Positions 332 to 34,477 of a stretch of 34,477 nt of DNA are shown here, piece after piece; position 1 is the first letter of the stretch; every line of letters starts with the position of its first letter. The notes beneath the pieces were generated by a model. It searched no databases, was not told the DNA's origin, and worked only from the letters and a program-made list of their open reading frames with translations. Source of the stretch: Escherichia coli (GTDB taxonomy: Bacteria > Pseudomonadota > Gammaproteobacteria > Enterobacterales > Enterobacteriaceae); assembly GCF_003334815.1 (NCBI RefSeq), contig NZ_QOWO01000039.1; one strand, 5' to 3'. The position numbers and the translations under genes were made by a program.

Positions 332-1027
332 TTAGCAGTCATCAATAATCAAGTAAGTTGCATGTACTGGTCCATGCACACCAACAACTTTGATCAGTTC
401 TATATCTGCAGTAGAACTTGGGCCTCCAATCAGATTGATACAGGAAGGCAGTCGTTGTCCTTCCTGAGCCATTTCATGAAGTTTTTGCGCAAGCTGAGCC
501 ACTCGGGGGAGAATAGTGCTTTTGCGTAAAACAAATAATGATGCTTCAGGCAAAAGGCTTACTGAGCGCCCACGTTCTGGTGCGGAGAATAAGACAATGC
601 CTCCTGATTCTGTCAGCCCATACTCAGCGAAAACGACACCAGTTTTTGCCTTTTCAGCAAGATGGATATTTTCATCGCCCTTCTCCGGATCCCACAGAGC
701 AGCGTCCATTTCTTTTTGTAGCAATGGCGTAATCCCTGTATCGACCAGTCGTTGATCGTTGCTGATAATGACTGGCCCGGAACCGAACTTCCAACAGATG
801 TCTAAGGCTGTTGATGGTGCGTTCTCAGGCGACACCAGAACACACTCGGCAAGCATCACTTCCGAGGCAAATTTAATAAACGCCTCACAGCGTTGGTCTG
901 ATGTCAACTCTGTTAAACGTGTCGTAGCCAGCGTATTTACAGGCTCCGGCATTGCTTCGGGAATATGTCTTACTGGTCTGCCAAGCTTTCTGGCGATCGC
1001 AACGAGAAATTCCTCTCTGTTTTCCAT
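332..1027 (-). CDS. lutC: Lactate utilisation protein C (LutC/YkgG family)
   Basis: 231-aa ORF, last gene of a tightly spaced lutA-lutB-lutC arrangement; conserved C-terminal block ...AEYGLTESGG..LFS..ERGRS.SLLPE.SLF.LRKSTI.PR... resembles E. coli YkgG as recalled from memory. Confidence 0.85.
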   Translation of the reverse strand: MENREEFLVAIARKLGRPVRHIPEAMPEPVNTLATTRLTELTSDQRCEAFIKFASEVMLAECVLVSPENAPSTALDICWKFGSGPVIISNDQRLVDTGITPLLQKEMDAALWDPEKGDENIHLAEKAKTGVVFAEYGLTESGGIVLFSAPERGRSVSLLPEASLFVLRKSTILPRVAQLAQKLHEMAQEGQRLPSCINLIGGPSSTADIELIKVVGVHGPVHATYLIIDDC

Positions 1028-1030
1028 AAA

Positions 1031-2446
1031 TTACCCCTCCTTCTTATGTCGCTTGAACCAACTACGGAAGCTTTCTCCATCAGGTGATGGCAGGTCTCTG
1101 GCTTCAGTCCATTCTTTTATCGCTCCAACACTAATCGGCGTTTTTCCTTTCCTGATGAACAGACGGGCTGTTTTGGCCCCAGCAACCATACCTACCTTCC
1201 ACAACGCCGGATGGCTGTTTATGTAATTGAATGCTCTGGTTATACGGCGTTCCGTTAATGGTGTGATTTCAGACTCTGCCATAACCTGGCGATGTTTTTG
1301 TATTAGCGTTGCCAGAGGTATTTTTACAGGACATACCCCATTGCAGGCAGTGCACAATGAGCAGGCATAGGGTAAATCCTTAAAGTCTTCATATCCACCA
1401 AGCAATGGGGAAATAACCGCACCGATTGGCCCCGGGTAGATTGAACCATAACCATGCCCACCAATCTGACGATAAGCCGGGCAGGTATTAATGCAGGCAC
1501 CGCAGCGGATACATCGCAATACATCGCTGAATTCTGAGCCGAGAATCTCTGAACGCCCATTGTCAACAATAACGAGATGGAACTCTTCCGGACCATCAAC
1601 ATGTCCTTCTTCTCTGGGGCCTGTAAGCCAGGTGTTATAACCTGTCAGTCTCGCCCCGACAGCACTCCTTGCAAGCATGGTAATCAGAACATCCACCTCC
1701 TGGAATGTCGGAGCAATACGCTCCATACCCATAACAGCAATATGTGTTTTAGGTAATGTGGTGCACATCCGTGCGTTGCCTTCGTTTGTAACAAGGCAGA
1801 CTGACCCTGTTTCTGCAACGGCAAAGTTACACCCCGTTACGCCAACTTCAGCACTCAGAAAATCTTGTCTGATTTTCTCACGGATGAACAATGTCATTGC
1901 TTCTGGAGTTTCAGGCCCGTCATACCCCAGATGTTCATGTAAAACTCTGCGGATTTGATGGCGATCTTTATGTATTGCCGGCACAACCACATGCGATGGT
2001 GGCTCATGTGCTAGCTGAAGAATATATTCCCCAAGGTCCGTTTCAATCACGGGTATCCCGGCTTTCTGAAGAACGGCATTCATGCCAATTTCCTCAGTCA
2101 CCATTGATTTGGATTTAACAACCTTCCTGGCGTTTTTTTCTTTCGCCACCTTCAGTATGTAACTGGTTGCATCCTCTCTGGTACGGGCAAAATATACATG
2201 CCCGCCATTCGCAGTAACCTTTTCGGACAATTGATACAAATAAGCATCAAGATTTTCCAGAACATGCCGACGAATCTGTTCAGCTCGTGAACGCCATTCC
2301 TCCCAGTGTCCCAGTTCATCAACCATTTTCTGTCGATTAGTCCCTATGCGCTCCTGTGCGTTAGCCACAGCTTTTCGCATGATCGGGTCCTGAATCTGAA
2401 TACGGATACGCTCTTTAAACCTGATATCACTTGTTTTCAAAGACAT
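1031..2446 (-). CDS. lutB: Lactate utilisation protein B (LutB/YkgF family), 4Fe-4S iron-sulfur protein
   Basis: 471-aa ORF with ferredoxin-type cysteine motifs CIRCGACINTCP and CSLCTACNGVCP; 3-bp gap to lutC and 10-bp gap to lutA. Confidence 0.9.
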   Translation of the reverse strand: MSLKTSDIRFKERIRIQIQDPIMRKAVANAQERIGTNRQKMVDELGHWEEWRSRAEQIRRHVLENLDAYLYQLSEKVTANGGHVYFARTREDATSYILKVAKEKNARKVVKSKSMVTEEIGMNAVLQKAGIPVIETDLGEYILQLAHEPPSHVVVPAIHKDRHQIRRVLHEHLGYDGPETPEAMTLFIREKIRQDFLSAEVGVTGCNFAVAETGSVCLVTNEGNARMCTTLPKTHIAVMGMERIAPTFQEVDVLITMLARSAVGARLTGYNTWLTGPREEGHVDGPEEFHLVIVDNGRSEILGSEFSDVLRCIRCGACINTCPAYRQIGGHGYGSIYPGPIGAVISPLLGGYEDFKDLPYACSLCTACNGVCPVKIPLATLIQKHRQVMAESEITPLTERRITRAFNYINSHPALWKVGMVAGAKTARLFIRKGKTPISVGAIKEWTEARDLPSPDGESFRSWFKRHKKEG

Positions 2447-2456
2447 TCTGTTTACC

Positions 2457-3176
2457 TCATCTGTGCATCAGGACTTCAGCAATATGCATCACTTTTACAG
2501 GATGCCCTTCACGGTTAAGCCGACCGCCGATGTTTAGCAGGCAACTGGCGTCAGCCCCGATAAGAAAATCAGGTTTAACATCCATAATATGCCCGACTTT
2601 CTCTTTCACCATTTCACCAGAGATCTCCGCCATTTTTACAGAGAATGTGCCGCCAAACCCGCAGCACGTTTCCTGAGCGTGAAACGGCAGTAGCTCAAGC
2701 CCCTGTACATTCTCAAGTAGCAAAAGCGGCTCTCTGGTTACACCCAGCTTACGGGAAAGGCTGCAGGAGGGATGGTACACAGCGCGACCATTGAGTTTTG
2801 CCCCAACATCTGTGATGCCAAGATGATTTACTATAAATGATGTCAAATCATGCAGGCGTTCAGCCACTTTTTCAGCTCGTGCCGCCCACTCAGGTTCTTC
2901 ACTGAGATAGCGAGCGTAATTTTTTATCGTGTAAGTGCATGACCCGGCAGGAGATACTACCGGCCAGTCATTCTCTTCCAGCGAAGATATGAGATTTTTC
3001 ATGCCCGGGATGGCATCACGAACATAACCGCCATTTATCGCTGGCTGACCACAACATCCCTGCTTTTCGGGGAAATGGACATTGCAACCCAATTGCTCCA
3101 GTAACAGCACACTCTTTTGTGCCATCCGGGATTTAAACGCATCACCAATGCAGGTGACGAAAAAGTTAACATTCAC
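2457..3176 (-). CDS. lutA: Lactate utilisation protein A (LutA/YkgE family), cysteine-rich Fe-S oxidoreductase subunit
   Basis: 239-aa ORF; N-terminus MNVNFFVTCIGD... and CCG-type cysteine motifs (GCCGQP, CCGFGG) typical of YkgE/LutA; first of the three lut genes. Confidence 0.9.
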   Translation of the reverse strand: MNVNFFVTCIGDAFKSRMAQKSVLLLEQLGCNVHFPEKQGCCGQPAINGGYVRDAIPGMKNLISSLEENDWPVVSPAGSCTYTIKNYARYLSEEPEWAARAEKVAERLHDLTSFIVNHLGITDVGAKLNGRAVYHPSCSLSRKLGVTREPLLLLENVQGLELLPFHAQETCCGFGGTFSVKMAEISGEMVKEKVGHIMDVKPDFLIGADASCLLNIGGRLNREGHPVKVMHIAEVLMHR

Positions 3177-3225
3177 AGAAATTTCTCCTGTTGATTAATA
3201 TTCCACGTCCTTTTGTTGTTTTTTC

Positions 3226-4782
3226 TCAGGCCATGAACAGGTGGTAGACAAGGCCTACTTTCAGTCCAAGAATAACAATATAAGCAAAGCAGTACTTCAG
3301 TGTTCCTGACATGATTACGCTGCCCTGACCATCCATACGGGTGGCTGAAACAGCGATAGCAATACTCTGAGGAGAAATCATTTTGCCGCCTGTTGCGCCA
3401 GATGTATTTGCGGCAGCCAGCCAGAGCGGGTCCACATGCAATTTTTCAGCCGCAGTAGTCTGCAATTTACCAAACAGAATGTTGGAGTTTGTGTCACTAC
3501 CAGTAACAAATGTACCAAGAGCGCCGATAACCGGAGCAATGAAGAGGTAGGCCCCACCAGTCAGATCCACAAGGCTCTGTGCCAGAGTGCCAATCAACCC
3601 ACAGACATCCATTACCGTTGCCATGGCAACAATCGCAGAAATGGCAATAATGGAGTTTTTAAGTTGTTTTACCGTGCTGACAAATACGTTTAACAGGCAT
3701 GACAGGGATGCTTTCTGTATCAAGCCGCCAATAACACTGGCAATGATAATCAGAACACCGGGGGTTGCGATCCATTCAATTTTCATCGACAGATTGCTGC
3801 CGTTACTCAGAGAGAAGGTGAGTGACGAGGCAATCTGAGACACTGCACTTTTTATCGTCGGGAACAGTGGAGAGCAAAGCAGAATGAACAGAAAGATCAG
3901 AATGTAGATTGAGCACGCACGTAACAACGCCCCACGAGAGTATGAAAGTGCGCTGGCGCTATCTGCTGAACTCTCAATAAGAAATTCAGGTTCTGTTTTT
4001 TCTTTACGGTTTTTTGCCATAAAGACTATAACGATCAGACTGACAAGACTTCCTGCGAAAGCCGGGAGCTCTGCGCCAAGATTAACAGCCACCAGATACT
4101 GAGGTATCAATGTGCTAATACCGCACATCAGGGTAATTAACCCTACGCCTCGTATAGCTTTCATACCTCCACCGATAATCGTGACGATAACGAAGGGGAG
4201 CAGAATGTTGAACAGTGCCAGCTGAAGAATAATCGTCCCGCTGAGTGTGGTTACAGGTAAATTAACTTGTTCAGCAAGCACGGAGACAGGTATACCGACT
4301 GCCCCAAACGCTGTAGGGACTGTATTAGCAACCAGTGATGCAATCGCTGCTTTTAGTGGGTTAAAGCCCAGTGCAATGAGTATACCTATGGGGATTGCTA
4401 CCGCTGTACCGTATCCGGCGGCCGCCTCAAGAAATCCGCCAAAACACCATGAGATAAGAAGAACCTGGATGCGTTTATCGTCACTAACGCTCGCCAGAAC
4501 ATTTCTCAGAATATCCATGCTTTTTGTCGCATTCATCAGGTTATAGCTGTAAATGGCAGCAAGGATGACAATCACAATCGGCCACAAACCTTTGATTGCG
4601 CCGTATACCACAGCAGATCCCATATCCATAACTGGCGTCTGCCAGAAAACCCCTCCAAGGATTAGCGTGAGCAGGAGAGTGCTAAGCACAGAATAGTGTA
4701 TGGGCATTTTGACTTTCAGAATCAAAATGATCATCGCCAGAAGGGGGGTAAGTCCCAGTAAAAAAAGCAGGTAATCGTGCAT
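3226..4782 (-). CDS. lctP: L-lactate permease (LctP family), polytopic inner-membrane transporter
   Basis: 518-aa highly hydrophobic ORF with multiple predicted transmembrane segments, directly upstream of lutABC on the same strand (49-bp gap); RBS aaggaa before the ATG. Confidence 0.8.
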   Translation of the reverse strand: MHDYLLFLLGLTPLLAMIILILKVKMPIHYSVLSTLLLTLILGGVFWQTPVMDMGSAVVYGAIKGLWPIVIVILAAIYSYNLMNATKSMDILRNVLASVSDDKRIQVLLISWCFGGFLEAAAGYGTAVAIPIGILIALGFNPLKAAIASLVANTVPTAFGAVGIPVSVLAEQVNLPVTTLSGTIILQLALFNILLPFVIVTIIGGGMKAIRGVGLITLMCGISTLIPQYLVAVNLGAELPAFAGSLVSLIVIVFMAKNRKEKTEPEFLIESSADSASALSYSRGALLRACSIYILIFLFILLCSPLFPTIKSAVSQIASSLTFSLSNGSNLSMKIEWIATPGVLIIIASVIGGLIQKASLSCLLNVFVSTVKQLKNSIIAISAIVAMATVMDVCGLIGTLAQSLVDLTGGAYLFIAPVIGALGTFVTGSDTNSNILFGKLQTTAAEKLHVDPLWLAAANTSGATGGKMISPQSIAIAVSATRMDGQGSVIMSGTLKYCFAYIVILGLKVGLVYHLFMA

Positions 4783-5360: not shown

Positions 5361-5744
5361 ATGCGCGCTAAAGAAAGACTTCCCCGGAAACACTATTCCC
5401 CTGAATTCAAAATGGAACTGGTCAGGCTGGCTCTTGAAGAAGAAGGCAGTATTGCCGCACTGGCCCGGAAACATGACGTCAATGATAACCTGCTCTTTAA
5501 ATGGATAAGGCTCTGGCAGCGTGAAGGGCGGGTCTGTCGGCCCCGAAAAAACTCATCGTCGCTTCCTGCCCTGATACCCGTGCAGCTTCAGGCGGGCTCT
5601 TCTCTCCCAACCTTCGAACTACCATCCTGCTCTCCTCCCGCTACCTGCCACATAAAATGTCGGGGAGGAGAAATAACACTGACTCATCCCTCTGCTGAAC
5701 TCATGAGCACTGTCCTGCGCGAACTGATGCGGGGGCCTGTATGA
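5361..5744 (+). CDS. tnpA: IS66-family accessory protein OrfA (TnpA)
   Basis: 127-aa ORF, first in the IS66-type three-gene arrangement; its stop overlaps the orfB start (ATGA). Confidence 0.8.
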   Translation: MRAKERLPRKHYSPEFKMELVRLALEEEGSIAALARKHDVNDNLLFKWIRLWQREGRVCRPRKNSSSLPALIPVQLQAGSSLPTFELPSCSPPATCHIKCRGGEITLTHPSAELMSTVLRELMRGPV

Positions 5745-6088
5745 TAAATCTTCCCGCAGGCACAAAAATCTGGCTGGTTGCCGGTATCACCGATATGCGC
5801 AACGGCTTCAATGGCCTCGCCGCAAAGGTGCAGACCGCGCTGAAAGATGACCCGATGTCCGGCCACGTCTTCATCTTCCGGGGACGCAGCGGCAGTCAGG
5901 TAAAACTGCTCTGGTCCACCGGCGATGGTCTGTGCCTGCTGACAAAGCGACTAGAACGTGGTCGCTTCGCCTGGCCCTCAGCCCGCGATGGCAAAGTGTT
6001 CCTGACGCCGGCGCAACTGGCGATGCTGATGGAAGGTATCGACTGGCGACAGCCAAAGCGGTTACTGACATCCCTGACCATGTTGTAG
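5741..6088 (+). CDS. tnpB: IS66-family accessory protein OrfB (TnpB)
   Basis: 115-aa ORF translationally coupled to orfA; precedes the transposase gene. Confidence 0.8.
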   Translation: MINLPAGTKIWLVAGITDMRNGFNGLAAKVQTALKDDPMSGHVFIFRGRSGSQVKLLWSTGDGLCLLTKRLERGRFAWPSARDGKVFLTPAQLAMLMEGIDWRQPKRLLTSLTML

Positions 6089-6137
6089 CGCTCTTTATCC
6101 TGGTTGTCGCAGAATAAGCCTGGTAAAATACAGGCTT

Positions 6138-7672
6138 ATGAACGACACCTCTTCTGACGACATCCTTCTGCTGAAACAGCGCCTGGCCGAACAGGAAGCG
6201 TTGATCCACGCCCTGCAGGAAAAGCTGAGCAACCGGGAACGCGAAATAGACCATCTGCAGGCGCAACTGGATAAGCTGCGCCGGATGAACTTCGGCAGTC
6301 GTTCCGAAAAGGTATCCCGCGTATCGCGCAAATGGAAGCTGACCTGAACCTGCTGCAGCAGGAAAGCGATACGCTGACCGGCCGGGTGGATGACCCGGCA
6401 GTGCAGCGCCCGCTGCGTCAGACCCGCACCCGCAAACCGTTCCCTGAGTCACTCCCACGGGATGAGAAGCGGCTGCTGCCGACTGAGCCGTGTTGCCCGG
6501 AGTGCGGTGGTTCGCTGAGTTACCTGGGTGAGGATGCCGCCGAACAGCTGGAGCTGATGCGCAGCGCCTTCCGGGTTATCCGGACAGTCCGTGAAAAGCA
6601 TGCCTGCCGTCGGTGCGATCGCATCGTTCAGGCCCCGGCTCCTTCGCGCCCCATCGAACGGGGGATCGCCGGACCGGGGCTGCTGGCCCGAGTGCTGACC
6701 TCAAAGTATGCAGAGCACATACCGCTGTATCGCCAGTCGGAGATCTATGCCCGCCAGGGTGTAGTGTTGAGTCGTTCTGTACTGTCGGGCTGGGTGGATG
6801 CGTGTTGTCGTCTGCTGGCACCGCTGGATGAAGCCCTTCAGCACTATGTCCTGACCGACGGCAAACTCCATGCTGACGATATGCCTGTCCCGGTGCTGTT
6901 GCCGGGCAATAAGAAGACGAAGACCGGGCGCTTATGGACGTACGTTCGAGACGACCGCAACGCCGGATCAGCGCTGGCCCCCGCAGTGTGGTTCGCTTAC
7001 AGCCCGGACAGAAAAGGTATCCACCCTCAGACCCATCTTGCAGGCTTCAGTGGCGTACTGCAGGCTGATGCCTACGCCGGGTTCAACGAGCTCTACCGCG
7101 ACGGCCATATAAAGGAAGCCGCGTGCTGGGCCCATGCCCGCCGAAAAATCCACGATGTTCACGTCCGTACCCCGTCAGCCCTGACGGAGGAGGCGCTGAA
7201 ACGGATCGGCGAGCTGTATGCCATCGAGTCGGAGCTCAGAGGTAAAAGAGCAGAGGAACGGCAGGCAGTCCGGCACCAAAAAGTGCTGCCGCTGCTGGCG
7301 TCACTGGAGGGGTGGCTGCGGGAGAAACAGAAAACCCTCTCAAGGCACTCAGAACTGGCGAAGGCGTTCGGGTATGCGCTGAACCAGTGGCCGGCGCTGA
7401 CCCGCTATGCAGAAGATGGCTGGGTGGAGGTGGATAATAACATTGCCGAAAACGCCCTACGACTGGTCAGTCTGGGGAGAAAAAACTGGCTGTTCTTCGG
7501 CTCGGATCATGGTGGTGAGCGCGGTGCGTCACTGTACAGTCTTATCGGGACGTGCAAATTAAACGGCGTGGATCCGGAACGCTATCTGCATCATGTACTT
7601 GATGTCATCGCCGACTGGCCTGTGAACCGGGTGGGTGCTCTGCTCCCGTGGCGGGTTACTCTGCCTGCCTGA
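6138..7672 (+). pseudogene. tnpC: IS66-family transposase (TnpC) split by a frameshift near 6330-6347
   Basis: Track ORFs 6138..6347 (N-terminal coiled-coil/leucine-zipper-like segment) and 6332..7672 (zinc-finger-like CxxC...CxxC, catalytic core, C-terminal ...LLPWRVTLPA) overlap in different frames and together make one IS66-type transposase. Confidence 0.75.
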
Positions 7673-8270: not shown

Positions 8271-8554
8271 ACGCTAAAAATGATAATTTGTTCTACCTGA
8301 TTAATGCAACATGCCATAAGTTTACGGGAAAGGCTGACCACCTGATATTGTTGCAAAATACGAAAGTCGTCAAAATCGCGGTGGGGAGCTTGAGGCTGTA
8401 AGCTGAAAGCGTTTGTGAAAGCCCCGGGAGATTGTTCTATCAATCAACCAAGGGCTCTACTGTAATGCCTAGACAACATTATAGTAGCCCGCTGACGTCC
8501 TCCACGCCAGAGGGAGCTTGCTACGTACAGCTTGTCGTTACTCAGAAGTAATAA

Positions 8555-8625
8555 ATGTAAAAAAACCGACTGATGAGGTCGGTTTTCTTACTGTTCCGTT
8601 ACAGAGTTGGTGGCCCTGACTGGAG
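8555..8625. repeat. Repeat family copy B (partial: hairpin plus conserved downstream segment only)
   Basis: gtaaaaaaaccgactgatgaggtcggttttcttactgttccgttacagagttggtgg matches the terminator-proximal part of copies A and C; the small-ORF part is absent. Confidence 0.5.
8559..8589. terminator. Terminator-like hairpin in repeat copy B (A7-ccgac-tgatgag-gtcgg-TTTTCTT)
   Basis: Perfect 5-bp GC-rich stem with flanking A-run and T-rich run. Confidence 0.4.
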
Positions 8626-8745
8626 GAAATCTCTTTTCAGCTAACGTTCTTATAATAGTGTTCTGTTCATTTGATAACAACCACCCTTGTAATCCGCAGG
8701 TTAGCACTGTCTGGCGACACTTCTGTCGTGATGACGGTAACCAGA

Positions 8746-8892
8746 ACATGAGTCTTCCCGGTATAACAGGCATGGTGGGGCGGATTTGCAGAAACAACAG
8801 ATGTAAAAAAACCGACTGGTGAGGTCGGCTTTTTTACTGTTCCGCTACAGAGTTGGTTGCTCTGGGCGGGAAAAGACAGTCTGTATCTAACA
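8746..8892. repeat. Repeat family copy C (~145 bp) with a 24-codon ORF (8748-8822, MSLPGITGMVGRICRNNRCKKTDW) and a terminator-like hairpin
   Basis: Same unit as copy A; the small ORF shares its first 13 codons with copy A, then diverges through a 1-nt indel. Confidence 0.6.
8805..8835. terminator. Bidirectional intrinsic-terminator-like hairpin (A7-ccgac-tggtgag-gtcgg-c-T6) in repeat copy C
   Basis: Perfect stem with A-run and T-run on either side. Confidence 0.5.
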
Positions 8893-8953: not shown

Positions 8954-9130
8954 TCACGTTAAAAATTTGTACCCTTCTTTAACTTCCAGTGCCTGCTCCT
9001 TTGACTCAAACATCAGTCTTGTTTTCCCGGGAACACCCCATGAAATGTATTCAACATCTATCCACCATTTTCCATATTCTTCATATGGCCCGGATATTAC
9101 TTTTTTGACAAAGGCGTCTACCAGATTCAT
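8954..9130 (-). CDS. Hypothetical small protein (58 aa, MNLVDAFVKKVISGPYEEYGKWW...)
   Basis: Internal ATG of track ORF 8954..9238, preceded by aaggaaaaaaca-ATG (RBS-like); the upstream part of the track ORF has no RBS and looks non-coding. Confidence 0.4.
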   Translation of the reverse strand: MNLVDAFVKKVISGPYEEYGKWWIDVEYISWGVPGKTRLMFESKEQALEVKEGYKFLT

Positions 9131-24392: not shown

Positions 24393-27300
24393 TCATCGGC
24401 CGGGGCTGTGGGAGAGATCCTGATGCAGAGTTTTTTCCTGCCTGTCCTCCGGCTTTTGGCTGTTGGACCACTGCTGCCATGACTGCTCGAAGCCCAGGTT
24501 CCGGTACAACGCATCAGGTTGTTTTTCCGGCGTGTAGACAGCAGCAAAAAGCGGTTCTTCCCGGGTTTTCAGATGAAACTGCATAAGCTCCGGTGCAGGG
24601 CGATTCGTGCTGTCAGCATCGTGGTTTACCGCTTCACCATAACCTGCAAAGCGTAAACCTTTGTCGGTCAGCGCATTGATAACCAGCTGACTGTTGTCGG
24701 CTGATGGGGTGGCCAGTGCCGGATACAATGTGCCGTTCAGCCGGACCACACCCTGCAGATGTTCATCGGCACTCTGGACAAGTAGCAGGTTGAGTTCACG
24801 CGTATCCTTATCCACTGATCCCAGAACAGGTGTCAGCTTGTCAGGGGCTGCGCTGGTTATTTCTGTTACCTGATTTGCGTTCTGTGGCGCGGAGACCGGA
24901 TGTCGGTCTTCACCGATAAACAGATGTGAGCCGACGTTTTCTGGCATACGTAACGCTTTCATCTCTTCGGGCCACCCCTGGCTGATTTGCGCAGCCACTT
25001 TCATAAAGGTTTCGACCGGAATCGCCTGAATACGCTGACCTTTATCCGGATTATCATGTGATACCGAGATCCCGTTGGTAACTGACTCCATGGACCACTT
25101 ATTCCGGAAACGTGCTTTTTGCTCTCCCGGGAGGATGAATTGTTCGCGGTTCTGAAGTGTCAGTGTCACCACGTCACCTTTCTGATGGTTTTTGACCAGA
25201 CTTTCCAGTTGTTCCCCCCAGTAGAGTTTGCTGCCACTGCGGTTTTTAAGCTCAACAAAGAAACTCTCTCCTTTGCCGGGTGCATATTCAGCACGACCAA
25301 AATTGTGCAGTACGGCAGTCACGCTCTCTCCCGGGCGAAGTTTTCCTGGTGGTTCTTCGTCTGGTGCCACATCTGCCGTTTTGCCTGGTTCAGCCGGTGA
25401 TGGTGCAGAGGCGGTGCTGACGGTTGATGCTTCAGGGGCTACTGGGGACGCCGGGGATTGTGTGGCTTCTTTTTCCTGAACGGGGTCAGGGACAGCCGGT
25501 TGTTCTGGGGTATTCCGGTTAAGTTCCGGTGTTGGCTGATGGGTGACAACTGCATCCTTACTGACAGCCATTTCCTTGCGTAATTTTTCTAGTTCAGCCC
25601 GTTGATCTGGCAATTTCATCCGGACATCGATGTTGTGCTCGATAATCAACTGCATTGCTTTTTGCTTAAAGGCATCACTGCCCGTCAGCTCTATGACGCC
25701 CCCATAAAATTTGGTGGCCACAGCAAGTGCGGCCAGAACGCTGCGATCGTCATTGCTGGCACCGTTGACCATTTCCAGCCGGTTTACCCGGTCAATGAAG
25801 GCAGGTTTGCCATCCAGTTTGTACAGGACGGTTCTGTCTGCTCGTTTTTCCCAGTCAAGCTCTTTAAGAATTTCGTCCATGTTGAGCGATATCGGTGCAT
25901 CAGAACGTTCCGGGGCGTAGACAATACTGTCAGGTATCGGTGGAGTCGTCGTGGTTTCCGCTGAGGGCGTGGGATCACTGTTCTCATGCGCCTGTGAATC
26001 CGTTTTTTTACGCGTAAAAAGGCCACGCGCTTTGTCGAGAAACGATGAAGTATTATCAGAAGGTGATGTGCTCTGAACAGGTTGCTGCGGAGTGGGTTCA
26101 TCCCGGACAGCCGGTTCTATAGTGGCTGTTGTGGCCTGAAGTTCTGACTCATCTGCCTGAACGGGGCCTGTGTCCGGTTGCGACGGCATATCACTGTTTT
26201 CCTGCAGATGCTCAGGATTTTCATTGTTCATCAGCTCCTGATATGCGCTGTAGTCTTCGTATTCTTCAGGGCCATCTGACTCAGGAAGGAACGGCTCTGG
26301 CTGAAGGGGAATGTCTTCAGTTACATGGCTGACCGCCTCTTCCCGGGGAGTATCCGGGGATATTCCGGTGCTTTGTTTGTCATCAGGCTCCGTCATCACG
26401 GTCATTTCCTCTTTGACTGCATCAGGGGAAGGTGATGGTTCGGCTGATTCATTCATGGTTTCAGATGAGGGGCTGTCTTCAGGGGCGGCGGGGGCAGCAG
26501 CAGGGGCCGGTATTTCTGGTGAAGTGCCGGACTCCTGTTGTAACTCGTTTTTTTCCGGTTGTGACAGTTCGGCTTCAAATTCACGCCAGTCTTTATCTGT
26601 GGCCACAGAGACAACTTTTTCCGGAGGTTCCGCCGGATGAGCGGGTTCATCAGGGGCAGACGCCGTTGTACTTTCCGGGGATGCCGGTGATTCTGCAGGG
26701 GAGTCCTGAACTACAGAGCTTTCCGTTTGCGCCTGAACGTTATCAGGGTGCCGCTCATCTTTGCCGTTATTTTCAGTGGCGTGACTGGTAAATGACAGTG
26801 TTTCATCAGCAATGTTACTGCTGGAAGCAGTTGGTTGTTCCTGCTGCGTGGCGGACGGCAGAGAAGGTCCCTGGTCATGGCTGTGCCCTGTATCGGGTGA
26901 TGTTTCAGGATATTCTGTCGGAGTCATGGTTTTTTCCTCAGTGTGGACCGGTGTAAAAACGAGGTTGCCGATCACCAGTGCCTCCCGGATTTCCGGGGTG
27001 TTACTGTTGGGGGTGGAAACCCCGATATGTTCTAACTGGGCGTTGATGACATGCTGAAAAGCGGCCCGTCCCCGGCTGGCGTCCAGGTCATTGAAATCGG
27101 TCAGTCCCTGCGATTTTTCGGCATCGGTGAACGCAGGAAAGATGACCGATCCTCCTGTCAGTTCTGCGGCTTTTGTTGCACTGACGATACCTTTGTTAAC
27201 CTGGCGTGCATGATCGTTGTCGGCACAGAAGATAAAGGGGCTTTGCTTCCATTTTTGCCGGGCATCTTCGGCCACGGCAATCATGTTGCCCGCATCCACT

Positions 27301-28160
27301 GTCATCAGCACCGGAAGGCCGGTGGCTTCGTGCAGGGAGGCGGCAGTGGCATAGCCCTCGGCAAACAGCACCGGCTGGCCGTTGCGCGGTGTACCCAGCG
27401 CAAACCAGTTACCGGTTTTCTCGGAATCTTTCAGGATGCGGGCATCCTTCCCGCCGGTGACCGGAATGCGCTGATAGGAGCGTATTGCGCCGTTACGGTT
27501 GCGGAAAGGAATAACGAGCTCATTTTTGTCGTTTATTCGCACCCCCGGCGCAGCCTGAATGCCTTTCCGGGTCAGGTATTCATGTGCCGTGGCCTGCGGC
27601 CATTTGTTGACATAGCGGCGGGCATAAGCAGCCTGTCGGTTGTACTGTGCTTTCAGTTCCCGCTCAGCGTCCTCCCTGCGTTGCAGCGAATGCGCTTTCA
27701 GGTGAAGCCTTGCGCGGGGATCTGTCTGCTCTCCGCCGGAGAAGGTCCAGTTGACCGGCGAATCATCCGCGCTGCGATAATCCCTGTACCAGCCGGCAGG
27801 TCTGCCGTCCAGGAAGCCGCGATATGCGCCACTTTTTTGCCCGTTTTTGTCATCGGTGGTCGGAACCCGGTGGATTTTACCGTCCATGGCCGGCAGTTCT
27901 TTCAGAACCAGTCCGGCATTTTCCAGTACCTGGGCAAACTCGGTGACCGGATCACTGCCGTTCATGGAGACTTCCTGCGGTCGGGGCAGCCAGCGGTCCA
28001 GCATGGACAGGTCCGCCCCCGGGCGGGCAAACCAGAGTTTGTGCTCTTTATCCCAGAGGACGGGCGTGTGCCCGTTCATCGGGGGATGTGCTTTTTTGAG
28101 ATCTTCTATTTCATCTGCAGGCACGGCAAGCCAGGTGCGGTAGCGGGATACAGACGGCAT
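24393..28160 (-). CDS. sogL: Sog-like conjugative DNA primase (N-terminal primase/Toprim-like domain, long acidic P/E/S/T-rich linker, large C-terminal domain)
   Basis: Start set at the ATG at 28160 (aggag RBS), giving about 1255 aa; the track ORF extends to a GTG at 28196. About 350 aa of low-complexity acidic linker in the middle. Confidence 0.7.
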   Translation of the reverse strand: MPSVSRYRTWLAVPADEIEDLKKAHPPMNGHTPVLWDKEHKLWFARPGADLSMLDRWLPRPQEVSMNGSDPVTEFAQVLENAGLVLKELPAMDGKIHRVPTTDDKNGQKSGAYRGFLDGRPAGWYRDYRSADDSPVNWTFSGGEQTDPRARLHLKAHSLQRREDAERELKAQYNRQAAYARRYVNKWPQATAHEYLTRKGIQAAPGVRINDKNELVIPFRNRNGAIRSYQRIPVTGGKDARILKDSEKTGNWFALGTPRNGQPVLFAEGYATAASLHEATGLPVLMTVDAGNMIAVAEDARQKWKQSPFIFCADNDHARQVNKGIVSATKAAELTGGSVIFPAFTDAEKSQGLTDFNDLDASRGRAAFQHVINAQLEHIGVSTPNSNTPEIREALVIGNLVFTPVHTEEKTMTPTEYPETSPDTGHSHDQGPSLPSATQQEQPTASSSNIADETLSFTSHATENNGKDERHPDNVQAQTESSVVQDSPAESPASPESTTASAPDEPAHPAEPPEKVVSVATDKDWREFEAELSQPEKNELQQESGTSPEIPAPAAAPAAPEDSPSSETMNESAEPSPSPDAVKEEMTVMTEPDDKQSTGISPDTPREEAVSHVTEDIPLQPEPFLPESDGPEEYEDYSAYQELMNNENPEHLQENSDMPSQPDTGPVQADESELQATTATIEPAVRDEPTPQQPVQSTSPSDNTSSFLDKARGLFTRKKTDSQAHENSDPTPSAETTTTPPIPDSIVYAPERSDAPISLNMDEILKELDWEKRADRTVLYKLDGKPAFIDRVNRLEMVNGASNDDRSVLAALAVATKFYGGVIELTGSDAFKQKAMQLIIEHNIDVRMKLPDQRAELEKLRKEMAVSKDAVVTHQPTPELNRNTPEQPAVPDPVQEKEATQSPASPVAPEASTVSTASAPSPAEPGKTADVAPDEEPPGKLRPGESVTAVLHNFGRAEYAPGKGESFFVELKNRSGSKLYWGEQLESLVKNHQKGDVVTLTLQNREQFILPGEQKARFRNKWSMESVTNGISVSHDNPDKGQRIQAIPVETFMKVAAQISQGWPEEMKALRMPENVGSHLFIGEDRHPVSAPQNANQVTEITSAAPDKLTPVLGSVDKDTRELNLLLVQSADEHLQGVVRLNGTLYPALATPSADNSQLVINALTDKGLRFAGYGEAVNHDADSTNRPAPELMQFHLKTREEPLFAAVYTPEKQPDALYRNLGFEQSWQQWSNSQKPEDRQEKTLHQDLSHSPGR

Positions 28161-28185
28161 GAGTGCTTCTCCTGAAAAAAGACGG

Positions 28186-28215
28186 AAAAAAACCACCGCC
28201 GGAAGCCGGGGGTGG
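28186..28215 (-). terminator. Intrinsic terminator between nuc and sogL (GC-rich 9-10 bp stem, 4-nt loop, U7 tract on the minus strand)
   Basis: Minus-strand RNA ccacccccg-gcuu-ccggcggugg-uuuuuuu, read directly; ends about 25 nt upstream of the sogL start. Confidence 0.6.
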
Positions 28216-28249
28216 CTGGGGGGATAGAAAATCGGGGGAGAAATGTTTG

Positions 28250-28801
28250 TCAGGGTCTCCAGTCTGTACCCTTATTCCAGCGATCCTGCCAGTGTTCAAG
28301 ATATTGTGCGGCTACATCCGGCATATTCTTAAGCACAACGACATTCTCTGAATTCTTGCGTGCAGCAGCACGAGAGAAGTTATAGGAGCCGGTTTCAACC
28401 GTGTTTCCGTCAACAATGATGACTTTGTCGTGATGGATGGGGAAGGCATCTACAGTCCGGAGAGGAATGTCCAGCAGGTTGATATATTTCATCGCTTCCT
28501 GACTTGCCCGGTTCGTATTCCCCTTGTCATCAACAACAATACGGACGTCCACTCCGCGTTTTTTCGCTTTTGCCAGCGCATGCATTACATCCGGGTCGGT
28601 GAAGGAATATGCCATCATCCTGATGGAGCTTTCCGCACTGTTGATTGTGTCAAGCACCAGAGCGGATGCGCTTCCTTCAGGAGAAAAGCCGACCTTCACG
28701 GATGGCGTGTCGATCATTGCAAACGATGGTGTCGTGAACAGTAACGGGCATGCCAGTAGCGATACCCGGAGCAGAGTAACGATAGTTTTTTTACCTGACA
28801 T
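28250..28801 (-). CDS. nuc: Phospholipase-D-superfamily endonuclease (Nuc-like), secreted
   Basis: HKD motif (IHHDKVIIVDGNTVETGSYNFS); signal peptide MSGKKTIVTLLRVSLLACPLLFTTPSFA from the internal ATG at 28801 (ggag RBS); the upstream part of track ORF 28250..29161 is judged non-coding. Confidence 0.75.
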   Translation of the reverse strand: MSGKKTIVTLLRVSLLACPLLFTTPSFAMIDTPSVKVGFSPEGSASALVLDTINSAESSIRMMAYSFTDPDVMHALAKAKKRGVDVRIVVDDKGNTNRASQEAMKYINLLDIPLRTVDAFPIHHDKVIIVDGNTVETGSYNFSRAAARKNSENVVVLKNMPDVAAQYLEHWQDRWNKGTDWRP

Positions 28802-28815
28802 AAAGACTCCAGAAT

Positions 28816-29106
28816 TTAATCGAGGCCAGTCCAGTCTCGTGGTGATTCCGTATGGTGGCGATACCACCATGGACGACCGGAGGCGATGGCCCCTCTCAGA
28901 ATGCTGTAAATGCGAGTACAGATCGTCCTGACAGTCCAGCCTGAACGGTCGAGAATAACGAAAAATAAAATGATGCCGGTGCAAATCCAGAAGGTTGTTT
29001 TGGAGGGAAAGGGGCATATAAACAGATAAATCATGGTGAACGGCAGAGGTACGCCCTGGATGTTGACTGGCGGTGTTGCATATCGCCAGAAACCTTCTCT
29101 TTTCAT
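28816..29106 (-). CDS. Small membrane protein at the TraK position (IcmT-like?)
   Basis: 96-aa hydrophobic ORF whose ATG overlaps the traJ stop (ATGA coupling). Confidence 0.5.
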   Translation of the reverse strand: MKREGFWRYATPPVNIQGVPLPFTMIYLFICPFPSKTTFWICTGIILFFVILDRSGWTVRTICTRIYSILRGAIASGRPWWYRHHTESPRDWTGLD

Positions 29107-30251
29107 GACCGTAACTCCCCTGGCGGGATAAAAAGAATCGCTTCTCTTCGGTCAACTTCATTCCGGATATACATTTCCAGAATCTGGTCCCGGATACGGC
29201 GCTTCTCCTGCCGGATTATGGCATCAATGTGATGCCCCCACTCTGCATGTGGCATTCCGGAAAGATTGTCGCGAAGCTCATCGTTAATGACGATATATTC
29301 CCGGACGGCTTTACGACCACCGTCATTTGTTCTGACCAGAACCTGAACCAGAATGAACTGCAACAGTGACAGGACAGCCCAGGCCATCGAATCCCTGATG
29401 ACAGGGGGAAACAGCCCAAGAAGACGTGCCAGCGTTTCACCAGGAGATTTCGTATGCATGGTGCTCAGGCAGTAATGTCCGGTGTTGCCTGCCTGTACCG
29501 CTGCGTCGGCGGTTTCGTTATCCCTGATCTCACCAACACCGATAATTTCGGGATTACGTCGTACAGCAGAACGCAGTCCGGCAGCAAAACTGACCACATC
29601 ACGCCCGATTTCTGCCTGATGCGGTGGGAGCAGATCGTTTTCATTTCCCAGGATATATTCCACCGGGTCTTCATATGTCACGATTTTGGCGTCGGGGAAA
29701 TTGTCCATAATGTAACGGTACAGTGCTGAACACAGCGTTGATTTTCCTGACCCGGTTTCACCACATACAAATCCCAGACCGCTTTTGCAGACCATTGCTT
29801 CAAGCAGGTCTGGTTCAATGTTCATGGAGAGAATGTCCGGTATTTCTGTCGGGATGACACGCATGGTTATTGAGATTGCTTTCTCCTCCGCACCAGATGT
29901 GCCCTGAATGAGGTGAGAGCGTAACCGGATGCGTTCTCCGCGTTTAAGACCATAGCGCCCGGATGCATCCCCGTTAATCTGTATCGTCCTGTCAACCGGA
30001 TTGCCTGCCAGAACGCGGGGAATGACTTCCCGACCGAACAGTTCATCAATCAGGGAGGACATGAGTGTGGTTGGTAACGTTGCACTGGAACAACGCACCC
30101 GTCGGCCAAAGCGACTGACAGATACAGGTGACCCGCCGGTCAGATCCACATCACTGACTTTATGTGCGGCACACCAGACAAAGAAATGCCGTAGTTCATC
30201 TGCAGTGAAACGCTGAAACGGAAAAAGACCAAACTCATCAGGAATATTCAT
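29103..30251 (-). CDS. traJ: DotB/PilT-family secretion ATPase (TraJ-type)
   Basis: 382-aa ORF with Walker A GETGSGKST and downstream acidic/His-box-like motifs typical of PilT/VirB11-like ATPases. Confidence 0.75.
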   Translation of the reverse strand: MNIPDEFGLFPFQRFTADELRHFFVWCAAHKVSDVDLTGGSPVSVSRFGRRVRCSSATLPTTLMSSLIDELFGREVIPRVLAGNPVDRTIQINGDASGRYGLKRGERIRLRSHLIQGTSGAEEKAISITMRVIPTEIPDILSMNIEPDLLEAMVCKSGLGFVCGETGSGKSTLCSALYRYIMDNFPDAKIVTYEDPVEYILGNENDLLPPHQAEIGRDVVSFAAGLRSAVRRNPEIIGVGEIRDNETADAAVQAGNTGHYCLSTMHTKSPGETLARLLGLFPPVIRDSMAWAVLSLLQFILVQVLVRTNDGGRKAVREYIVINDELRDNLSGMPHAEWGHHIDAIIRQEKRRIRDQILEMYIRNEVDRREAILFIPPGELRS

Positions 30252-33847: not shown

Positions 33848-34414
33848 TTACCAGGGTAATAAAGACGTATTAAATAAGCTAACAGGTAGTATTTGCCCTG
33901 TAATAAGGTTTCCGGCAAGGCCAGGTCTCAACGTAACGCGTCGCAAAGACATTGTTGTATTCTGCCTGGTTGTATATTCAGTTAACCATTTTCTTTTTTC
34001 ATCGTTCAGAAGTGTTGGTGATAATGATAGTGCCGGATATATTACAGAGCCATTTATTTCTTTTTCCTGTCTCAATATTACCCCGCAATATTCTCTTTTC
34101 GTGTTTCCTGCGAAGGGGAAACTATGCCAGAAAATAACTTCAGTGTTGCTGCTATCATTAATAAGCATTCTGAAATTATGAGCAGTATCTGGCCATTCAC
34201 CGGACAACGCTATCGGATAGTTTTCATGGCCATTCAGCCAGTCCGGATTGAGATTAAAACATTCAGCAAGATGTTCGAGAGCGTCAACTGAAAGATAGTC
34301 TGCAAGTCTGGCCGGGTCCTGTATTACCGTGGAGCGGATATTCCATGGCGACAGCAATGTTGCCAGTAATGGCGCATTTATATCATGCGACAGCATGATG
34401 GGTAATGACTCCAA
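33848..34414 (-). CDS. Hypothetical protein upstream of the tra block; start uncertain (TTG at 34414 or internal ATG)
   Basis: 188-aa track ORF on the same strand as the tra genes; no recognisable motif. Confidence 0.3.
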   Translation of the reverse strand: MESLPIMLSHDINAPLLATLLSPWNIRSTVIQDPARLADYLSVDALEHLAECFNLNPDWLNGHENYPIALSGEWPDTAHNFRMLINDSSNTEVIFWHSFPFAGNTKREYCGVILRQEKEINGSVIYPALSLSPTLLNDEKRKWLTEYTTRQNTTMSLRRVTLRPGLAGNLITGQILPVSLFNTSLLPW

Positions 34415-34477
34415 CTTATTGATAGTGTTTTATGTTCAGATAATGCCCGATGACTTTGTCATGCAGCTCCACCGATT

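Follow-up and report, generated by a model that had tools for sequence, protein, structure and literature searches.

Two reading frames compete for one segment of the 34,477-nt stretch of Escherichia coli DNA analysed here (the window). A 303-aa ORF with an ATG start (28250–29161, minus strand) fully contains a 96-aa ORF (28816–29106, minus strand) that is read in a different frame, and the question is which of these frames constitute genes. The first-pass annotation had taken the 303-aa ORF to be a 183-aa nuclease gene plus an overlapping gene in another frame at the position of traK. The homologues, the polymorphisms and the RefSeq coordinates agree with this division, and we consider it almost certain that the stretch consists of two separate, already described IncI1-type transfer-operon genes, traK and nuc, and that the 303-aa ORF is artefactual.

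Genomic context

The window is the transfer region of an IncI1/I-gamma plasmid. It matches the E. coli plasmid NZ_CP024481.1 except for 4 SNPs and, at its two ends, about 140 and about 80 bases. On the minus strand, traJ (29103–30251), an ORF for a 382-aa DotB/VirB11-like transfer ATPase that RefSeq annotates with the same coordinates as "plasmid transfer ATPase TraJ", is followed by the 96-aa gene traK (28816–29106), a 14-nt spacer, and nuc (28250–28801), which encodes a 183-aa PLD-family nuclease. The wider gene order is traH-traI-traJ-traK, inside a type IVB (MPF_I) transfer operon. The next gene downstream of nuc is sogL (24393–28160, minus strand, RefSeq coordinates), which encodes a plasmid DNA primase of 1255 aa from an ATG at 28160 and is named SogL in LC567073.1.

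Past the nuc stop codon, and ahead of the sogL ATG, lies a G+C-rich hairpin (28217–28191) followed by U7 (28190–28184), with an RNA folding energy of −24.7 kcal/mol (z = −2.8). By its likeness to such elements, this minus-strand feature (28184–28217) is a putative intrinsic terminator. A poor hairpin at 28197–28181, proposed by a simple terminator scan, was discarded in favour of the better one given by RNA folding.

The start and product of nuc

Sequence features of the ribosome-binding site and signal peptide that the first-pass annotation had placed at the internal Met (28801) were both found there. The 14-nt spacer that separates the traK stop codon from nuc contains a Shine-Dalgarno-like GGAG (28807–28810, minus strand), placed 5 nt ahead of the nuc ATG; its predicted anti-Shine-Dalgarno pairing energy of −5.9 kcal/mol was more favourable than at any other in-frame start candidate within the long ORF. 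The 183-aa product begins with KK and a hydrophobic core (15-residue Kyte-Doolittle maximum of 2.16) followed by P-S-F-A, and a 28-residue Sec signal peptide, MSGKKTIVTLLRVSLLACPLLFTTPSFA (28718–28801, minus strand), is predicted from hydropathy and from comparison with the leader of Nuc from the IncN plasmid pKM101 (PDB 1BYR/1BYS). The pKM101 leader ends with PAFA, and the crystallised 155-aa chain starts directly after it; the window leader likewise carries P-x-F-A, although it has 28 residues and that of pKM101 has 22. Cleavage after SFA would yield a mature protein with MIDTPS at its N-terminus and a computed length of 155 aa, as in pKM101.

The nuclease matched PLDc_2 with an E value of 5.2e-27 (model positions 2–132 of 132). 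A motif search located the catalytic HKD motif, HDKVIIVD, at residues 124–131 of the 183-aa protein (28409–28432, minus strand), and GSYN follows at residue 138; a single HKD motif and GSxN are likewise common to pKM101 Nuc. Residues 3–152 of the 155 residues of 1BYR, which is mature pKM101 Nuc, aligned to residues 33–182 of the 183-aa protein (E 2.7e-62), equivalent to residues 153–302 of the long ORF, and identity to the 177-aa Nuc precursor of IncN plasmids was 61% over the whole protein. The alignment of Nuc homologues shows no variation at K246, D251, G258, S259 and N261 (long-ORF numbering) and almost none at H244. In thirteen homologues (39–61% identity, 175–196 aa), the first residue falls no more than about three alignment columns from Met121 of the long ORF, and all 13 carry a hydrophobic leader. 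The 183-aa product thus has the predicted form of a short precursor (about 170–190 aa) with a signal peptide and without an extra N-terminal domain.

pKM101 Nuc is reportedly a metal-independent endonuclease, a homodimer forming one active site. The mature 155-aa protein of the window may act in the same way, as a dimeric, metal-independent (EDTA-resistant) enzyme with one HKD motif per subunit. Its translation would start at the ATG at 28801, 14 nt past the traK stop codon and 5 nt downstream of GGAG, and the signal peptide would most likely direct export via Sec to the periplasm. Besides pKM101 Nuc, the nearest known counterpart is the nuc ("EDTA-resistant nuclease") gene of the IncI1 plasmids R64, ColIb-P9 and pESBL; the same 552-bp gene is found 14 nt after traK in pESBL.

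More distant likenesses were detected to Helicobacter pylori NucT and to Zucchini/MitoPLD, which, like the window protein, belong to the PLDc_2 fold family and have one HKD motif (NucT structure 6EHI, E 2e-8; best NucT model, E 1e-13; mouse Zucchini structure 4GGJ, E 3e-9). All scores for NucT equivalogs were far under their cut-offs (50.8 vs 297 bits), and the window protein does not belong to those groups. NucT prefers single-stranded substrates (PMC5714352).

The 96-aa frame and the IcmT/TraK family

The traK ATG (29106–29104) shares bases with the traJ TGA (29105–29103), and the resulting ATGA (29103–29106, minus strand) is a stop/start overlap of the layout typical of translational coupling. 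A Shine-Dalgarno-like GGGGAG (29115–29120, minus strand) lies 8 nt upstream of the traK ATG and forms an anti-Shine-Dalgarno duplex of −7.8 kcal/mol. The reference for these energies was the set of all 666 minus-strand ATGs of the window (mean −2.8 kcal/mol), about 5% of which reached −7 and about 3.5% reached −8 kcal/mol. Both the overlap and GGGGAG are present as expected from the first-pass claim that the 96-aa frame is coupled to traJ; the coupling itself is what they suggest, and most likely the ribosomes that finish traJ go on to translate traK, by way of the ATGA overlap and the GGGGAG belonging to traK itself.

The 96-aa ORF lies within the upstream 120 codons of the long ORF at the coordinates expected and is hydrophobic, as had been claimed. 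Two hydrophobic segments were detected, at about residues 19–33 and 36–59 (15-residue hydropathy windows of at least 1.6, maximum 2.53), and judged by hydropathy they are probably membrane-spanning. The comparison with IcmT/TraK-like proteins that the first-pass annotation had proposed gave a match to the NF038220 IcmT_TraK profile over positions 1–79 of 81 (E 8.1e-10), with a score of 38.7 bits that is 1.3 bits under the NCBI curated cut-off of 40 bits; the TraK orthologues of IncK2/Z plasmids, 71% identical to the window TraK, scored 40.1 and 42.3 bits. Searches of Pfam and, by sequence, of solved structures with the 96-aa protein returned no match.

Size and hydrophobic segments fit the IcmT/TraK family (about 85–100 aa with two membrane-spanning segments, on the basis of hydropathy), as does the position of the gene, which comes immediately after that for the DotB/TraJ ATPase within a type IVB (MPF_I) operon. 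The features shared with R64/ColIb-P9 TraK and Legionella pneumophila Dot/Icm IcmT (NF038220) are the small size, the two hydrophobic segments, the location after the DotB-like ATPase gene traJ and the full-length profile alignment; the window protein differs in its score, just below the cut-off. In the literature, R64 TraK is treated as an IcmT homologue, 2 transmembrane segments are given for pCTX-M3 TraK, and no biochemical role has been assigned to IcmT/TraK (PMC6112013). We take TraK to be part of the type IVB conjugation apparatus. By transposon sequencing of the IncI1 plasmid pESBL, TraK (291 bp), which lies 14 nt upstream of Nuc, was required for transfer, with 0.97 of TraK scored required, and Nuc (552 bp) was dispensable (PMC4288162).

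The open frame upstream of nuc

Upstream of the nuc ATG, the nuc frame remains open for 120 codons (28802–29161, minus strand), covering the whole of traK and the 3′-terminal 59 bases of traJ. This non-coding "shadow" of the nuc frame specifies no hydrophobic segment by hydropathy and gave no family match in the profile search, and residues 1–165 of the long ORF were without a Pfam match. With the extension alone as the query, 10 small clusters were retrieved among 5.8 billion, and all seven sequences that were read proved to be frameshifted, chimaeric or truncated. Among the best 150 of 13,633 homologues, every diverged match aligned from residue 123 or later, and the only matches reaching upstream of that residue were three near-identical plasmid fragments, two of them frameshifted or chimaeric ORFs and the third an 86-aa partial product. 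The first-pass annotation had made its division depend on the starts of the Nuc homologues; 1BYR and the diverged homologues match only from about residue 121 onward, and a conserved N-terminal extension of about 120 aa was looked for and seen in none of the homologues compared.

Open runs of 120 codons or more whose terminal stop codon is not that of an annotated gene number 24 in the window, so the long open stretch is statistically unremarkable. The pairing energy at the ATG at 29161 (−3.3 kcal/mol) is near the mean of the minus-strand ATGs. We also calculated codon-usage log-odds with ten long window genes as the training set; on this scale known genes scored +0.31 bits per codon in frame and −0.55 off frame. 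Over the overlap, the traK frame scored +0.06 and the long frame −0.09, and codon usage was dropped as evidence for either frame since the score fails to separate the two cleanly.

Polymorphisms were compared among 8 close relatives that are 97.8–100% identical, with only 10 variable sites in the overlap. Read in the traK frame, seven of the changes are synonymous and three non-synonymous, and 7 of the 10 fall at traK third codon positions (binomial P = 0.02); read in the long frame, one is synonymous and nine are non-synonymous. The traK frame shows a pattern of purifying selection, with substitutions mostly synonymous and at third positions.

In IncK2/Z plasmids the gene order is traJ-traK-sogL, without nuc in between. 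Their traJ and traK also overlap by a 4-nt ATGA (traJ ends at 2533 and traK starts at 2530), and the frame equivalent to the long ORF contains stops and has no start. TraK protein identity to the window is 71% at a DNA identity of only about 69%. IncN plasmids carry the 177-aa nuc directly after virB11 and lack traK; their nuc is thus placed in a type IVA (MPF_T) operon, whereas the window has nuc behind traK, as part of a type IVB (MPF_I) operon. traK and nuc therefore occur independently of each other in other plasmids. All IncI1/I-gamma plasmids sampled have the nuc frame open over traK for 120 codons, and in this respect, a chance property of the plasmid lineage, the window nuc differs from that of pKM101. 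We conclude that the 303-aa ORF is an artefact of the nuc frame, in which the 120 codons before the real start include no stop codon, and that the long frame is open over traK by chance.

Alternative readings of the overlap

One could envisage that traK and nuc are both real and that the long frame additionally undergoes low-level translation, giving a cytoplasmic Nuc isoform with its signal peptide buried. The frame is indeed open, nine possible changes that would create a stop in it while remaining silent in traK are absent from the 8 compared sequences, and the codon score is intermediate. However, the diversity sampled, with its 10 variable sites, is so small that a lack of stops is uninformative, the substitution pattern reveals no constraint on the long frame, the ATG at 29161 has no ribosome-binding site, and off-frame runs of this length are common in the window. 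We regard this dual coding as very improbable. That occasional translation from the ATG at 29161, yielding a cytoplasmic, signal-masked Nuc isoform, amounts to a true overlapping gene deserves less credence still, and nothing that we found supports it.

It is equally hard to credit that the 303-aa ORF is a real nuclease gene with a 120-aa N-terminal domain and the 96-aa ORF a spurious overlapping frame. The long ORF is the longest ORF and has an ATG start, one GenBank submitter annotated it (ARX61781.1), and by codon score it looks less off-frame in the overlap than such frames typically do; it is also open in 8 of 8 close relatives, an observation of little weight given that all are 97.8–100% identical. 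Against this, the extension is without a homologue and the diverged Nuc homologues all begin at Met121. In Sec targeting, an internal signal peptide behind 120 extra residues would not work. In addition, the start at 29161 lacks a Shine-Dalgarno sequence and sits inside traJ, nine of the ten polymorphisms would be non-synonymous, and IncK2/Z plasmids retain the traK frame without any nuc. Finally, insertions in the traK stretch of pESBL abolish transfer, whereas nuc insertions are neutral (PMC4288162).

That the 96-aa ORF is unexpressed and its 291 bp serve only as an untranslated leader of nuc and sogL, or in their regulation, could be argued from the records that leave it unannotated and from the frequent RefSeq name "hypothetical protein", but this has next to no chance of being right in view of the full-length IcmT/TraK profile match, the protein identity to IncK2/Z TraK at a lower DNA identity, the third-position bias of substitutions, the conserved ATGA coupling layout and Shine-Dalgarno sequence, and the requirement of TraK for pESBL transfer even though the downstream nuc is dispensable (PMC4288162).

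Annotation of traK and nuc in public records

The assignment of the stretch to traK and nuc is the one found in public databases. RefSeq and GenBank records that are 99.9–100% identical to the stretch annotate 28816–29106 and 28250–28801, and the 183-aa and 96-aa products are each recorded from at least 1000 contigs. For the exact 303-aa product the entries amount to one GenBank accession, ARX61781.1 (labelled "TraK"), together with its UniRef entry, and the contig collection held no gene call with exactly this product. The expectation that automated callers would probably pick the long ORF was thus only weakly borne out, one accession giving that product; traK is missing from a few records. 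The commoner fault is that traK is left out, as in LC567073.1, where nuc is named as such, and in the original pESBL annotation, or that it is called "hypothetical protein"; the product name "EDTA-resistant nuclease" is used in LC567073.1 and for pESBL. The score under the 40-bit cut-off accounts for the RefSeq names "hypothetical protein" or "conjugal transfer protein", and the IncK2/Z orthologue that scores 42.3 bits is named icmT.

The gene structure of traK and nuc was already known and is so annotated, and the result contains no new biology; its importance is limited to annotation hygiene. traK is easily lost because the gene is short, a longer open frame runs across it, and its score falls just short of the NCBIfam cut-off. 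It is nevertheless a small gene needed for the transfer of IncI1 resistance plasmids, and counts and comparisons of IncI transfer genes should add traK by homology, as the pESBL study did (PMC4288162).

Gene layout and start sites

The first-pass annotation, a model's reading of the sequence, had called the 303-aa ORF at 28250-29161 an annotation trap, consisting of a 183-aa nuclease gene and an overlapping traK-position gene in another frame. The ORF listing and a reading of the bases located each of these elements at the positions it had given. On the minus strand we find the 303-aa ATG ORF (the long ORF, 28250-29161), a 96-aa ATG ORF in a different frame (traK, 28816-29106) and a 382-aa ORF (traJ, 29103-30251). 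The traK start at 29106 overlaps the traJ stop codon in an ATGA sequence and has GGGGAG 8 nt to its 5' side, and its stop codon is the TAA at 28818-28816. The ATG at 28801, which is codon 121 of the long ORF (Met121) and the start of the nuclease gene nuc (28250-28801), lies 14 bases past the traK stop with GGAG 5 nt upstream; the long-ORF start, ATG 29161, lies within traJ. Predicted anti-Shine-Dalgarno pairing was -7.8 kcal/mol at 29106, -5.9 at 28801 and -3.3 at 29161, against a mean of -2.8 kcal/mol over all 666 minus-strand ATGs. Counting only runs that terminate elsewhere than at the stop of an annotated gene, the window has 24 stop-free stretches of 120 codons or more, so that the 120-codon open stretch preceding Met121 (the extension, 28802-29161) is nothing special here.

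The nuclease and the upstream extension

Alignment with Nuc homologues, proposed earlier as a check, favoured the shorter gene. The crystallised mature pKM101 Nuc (1BYR, 155 aa) aligned with long-ORF residues 153-302 (E 2.7e-62); Pfam PLDc_2 matched residues 170-295 (E 5e-27), and no Pfam match was obtained with residues 1-165. Searching 1.84 billion representative proteins, we obtained 13,633 homologues. Within the 150 best of them, which are typically 170-220 aa long, all matches to diverged homologues start at query residue 123 or later, and only three (the public predicted proteins P0047, P0052 and P0055) reach upstream. Of the three, P0052 is a partial 'phospholipase D family protein' of 86 aa with 88% identity across one third of the extension; the other two are ORFs, frameshifted or chimaeric, on near-identical fragments of plasmids. 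In an alignment of 12 homologues (39-61% identity) together with the 177-aa IncN precursor, all 13 proteins began no more than about 3 columns from Met121 and had a hydrophobic leader. The nuc leader, MSGKKTIVTLLRVSLLACPLLFTTPSFA, has an ending that resembles that of the 22-residue pKM101 leader (…PAFA), right after which the crystallised chain starts; if cleavage takes place behind SFA, the mature protein would be 155 aa long, equal to that of pKM101. A motif search found both the catalytic HDKVIIVD motif and GSYN in the nuc product.

The extension alone had no match in NCBIfam and retrieved 10 small clusters from 5.8 billion clustered proteins; the sequences read from these clusters (7 of 7) were frameshifted, chimaeric or truncated products. 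An A7 run (28786-28792, minus strand) lies just past the nuc start, in codons 4-6 (MSGKKT). P0046, P0047, P0049 and P0050 switch frame exactly at this run or inside traK, most likely through homopolymer sequencing errors in assemblies, and it is because of such switches that the databases contain any 'homologues' of the extension. Nuc homologues with a conserved extension of about 120 aa, which would have spoken against two genes, were found neither among the best 150 of the 13,633 homologues nor in the 5.8 billion clustered proteins.

The overlapping gene is traK

The 96-aa product aligned nearly full-length with NCBIfam NF038220, the IcmT/TraK family suggested by the first-pass annotation (positions 1-79 of 81, E 8e-10), but its 38.7 bits fall below the curated cut-off of 40 bits, which is why RefSeq names it 'hypothetical protein'. 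Copies of the IncK2/Z orthologue score 40.1 and 42.3 bits, the latter being annotated icmT; orthologues of a single group fall on either side of the curated threshold. TraK has two hydrophobic segments (residues 19-33 and 36-59). Published work regards TraK of R64 and of pCTX-M3 as homologous to IcmT, with a biochemical function yet to be established (PMC6112013).

To compare the frames, we used eight IncI-type sequences (97.8-100% identity), which contain 10 variable sites within the stretch covered by both. The changes are 7 synonymous and 3 non-synonymous in the traK frame, and 1 synonymous and 9 non-synonymous in the long frame; 7 of the 10 fall at traK third codon positions (binomial P = 0.02). 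The nuc gene proper carries 8 synonymous and 3 non-synonymous changes. A codon-usage score did not separate the traK frame from the long frame and was left out of the evidence.

The IncK2/Z plasmids encode a 96-aa TraK orthologue (71% identical as protein, about 69% as DNA) with the same ATGA overlap with traJ, whereas the frame equivalent to the long ORF contains stops and has no start codon; nuc is absent, and sogL follows traK after 63 nt. In IncN plasmids nuc comes directly after virB11 without traK, unlike the window, where it follows traK, and in pCTX-M3 it lies away from the tra region (PMC6112013). The occurrence of traK without nuc (IncK2/Z) and of nuc without traK (IncN) indicates that the two genes occur independently. 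The layout in the window is that of pESBL (IncI1), in which transposon-insertion sequencing covered a 552-bp Nuc gene with a 291-bp TraK gene 14 nt upstream; the neutral score of Nuc was 1.00, and the share of TraK classed as required for transfer was 0.97 (PMC4288162). The pESBL traK originally had no locus tag and was 'added based on identity to the R64 counterparts' (PMC4288162).

Public annotation of the locus

The 1.2 kb around the locus matched 1369 plasmid records (1122 at 99% identity or more), mostly from Escherichia and Salmonella and nearly all conjugative. RefSeq and GenBank PGAP annotations place a 291-bp gene at 28816-29106 ('hypothetical protein' or 'conjugal transfer protein') and a 552-bp gene, named 'phospholipase D family protein', at 28250-28801; wherever a sampled full-length match had PGAP-style product names, both genes were listed. 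In LC567073.1 the 552-bp gene is 'nuc: EDTA-resistant nuclease', followed by sogL, and traK is absent from the gene table. The expectation that automated callers would probably choose the long ORF and miss the small gene held only weakly. The trap exists, since the exact 303-aa product was deposited as ARX61781.1 ('conjugal transfer protein TraK' in GenBank, 'phospholipase D' in its UniRef entry), but it rarely catches current callers: this is the sole GenBank accession, the product look-up found no 303-aa call in the contig collection, and the exact 183-aa and 96-aa products each came from at least 1000 contigs. The more frequent problem is that traK is omitted or uninformatively named. In the clustering at 90% identity, the 303-aa product is grouped with TraJ (382 aa), which supplies the representative and every other listed member. 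The two share no reading frame, so this grouping resembles an artefact of clustering, to which frameshifted fusion products may have provided the bridge.

Plasmid context and other features of the window

The entire window aligns with E. coli plasmid NZ_CP024481.1 (IncI-gamma/K1 replicon, MPF_I) with 4 internal SNPs (14264, 20153, 27371 and 30751), except that the first 137 bases (1-137) and the last 77 (34401-34477) are unrelated, so the window derives from a distinct, though very similar, replicon or from a rearranged context. The minus-strand genes form an IncI1-type transfer operon: traE-traF-(traG)-traH-traI-traJ, the traK/nuc region, sogL, traL-traY and excA.

In the middle of this operon, in the interval that separates the end of nuc (stop codon, 28250) from the ATG of sogL (28160), a G+C-rich hairpin of 11 pairs with one bulge precedes U7 (28184-28217, minus strand; -24.7 kcal/mol, z = -2.8) and looks like a putative intrinsic terminator or attenuator. 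The mechanical ORF list starts sogL (minus strand) at GTG 28196 (1267 aa) and the records at ATG 28160 (1255 aa), which has AGGAG just 5'; this is a second case of the longest ORF overshooting the real start. An in-frame internal sogL product, SogS, is listed for pESBL (PMC4288162).

Rfam matches above the gathering score to a sok antitoxin RNA (8384-8525, plus strand, 67.5 bits) and two AgrB antisense RNAs (8557-8644 and 8803-8890, minus strand, 59.4 and 50.7 bits) suggest that the stretch from the IS66 element to excA contains candidate type I toxin-antitoxin modules. The matching record's gene table, in which RNA genes are not listed, has nearby only one 'hypothetical protein' (8954-9130). 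A lactate-utilisation cluster (332-4782, minus strand), comprising lutC, lutB, an L-lactate permease gene and, in the place of lutA, a gene for an (Fe-S)-binding protein, adjoins IS66-family ORFs (5361-7672, plus strand) beside the transfer region and is metabolic cargo on an IncI-type plasmid. The PLSDB gene table lists only tnpB of the IS genes.

Probable expression and function of traK and nuc

The observed gene boundaries, homologies and frame conservation describe a 183-aa nuclease gene and an overlapping traK-position gene, and this gene structure is supported. Having finished traJ, ribosomes would most likely start again on traK at its overlapping ATG, and TraK is predicted to enter the inner membrane as part of the type IVB mating machine. 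The nuc gene would be translated from its own GGAG/ATG, and the precursor is likely Sec-exported and then cleaved. The mature 155-aa Nuc would be a periplasmic, metal-independent HKD nuclease not needed for transfer. From sequence features and by analogy with pKM101 Nuc we infer coupling, export, the site of cleavage, activity and membrane topology; the properties of pKM101 Nuc were reportedly described by Pohlman et al. in 1993 and Stuckey and Dixon in 1999. The traK and nuc genes of this plasmid are of the R64/ColIb-P9 type, and their biology is already known.
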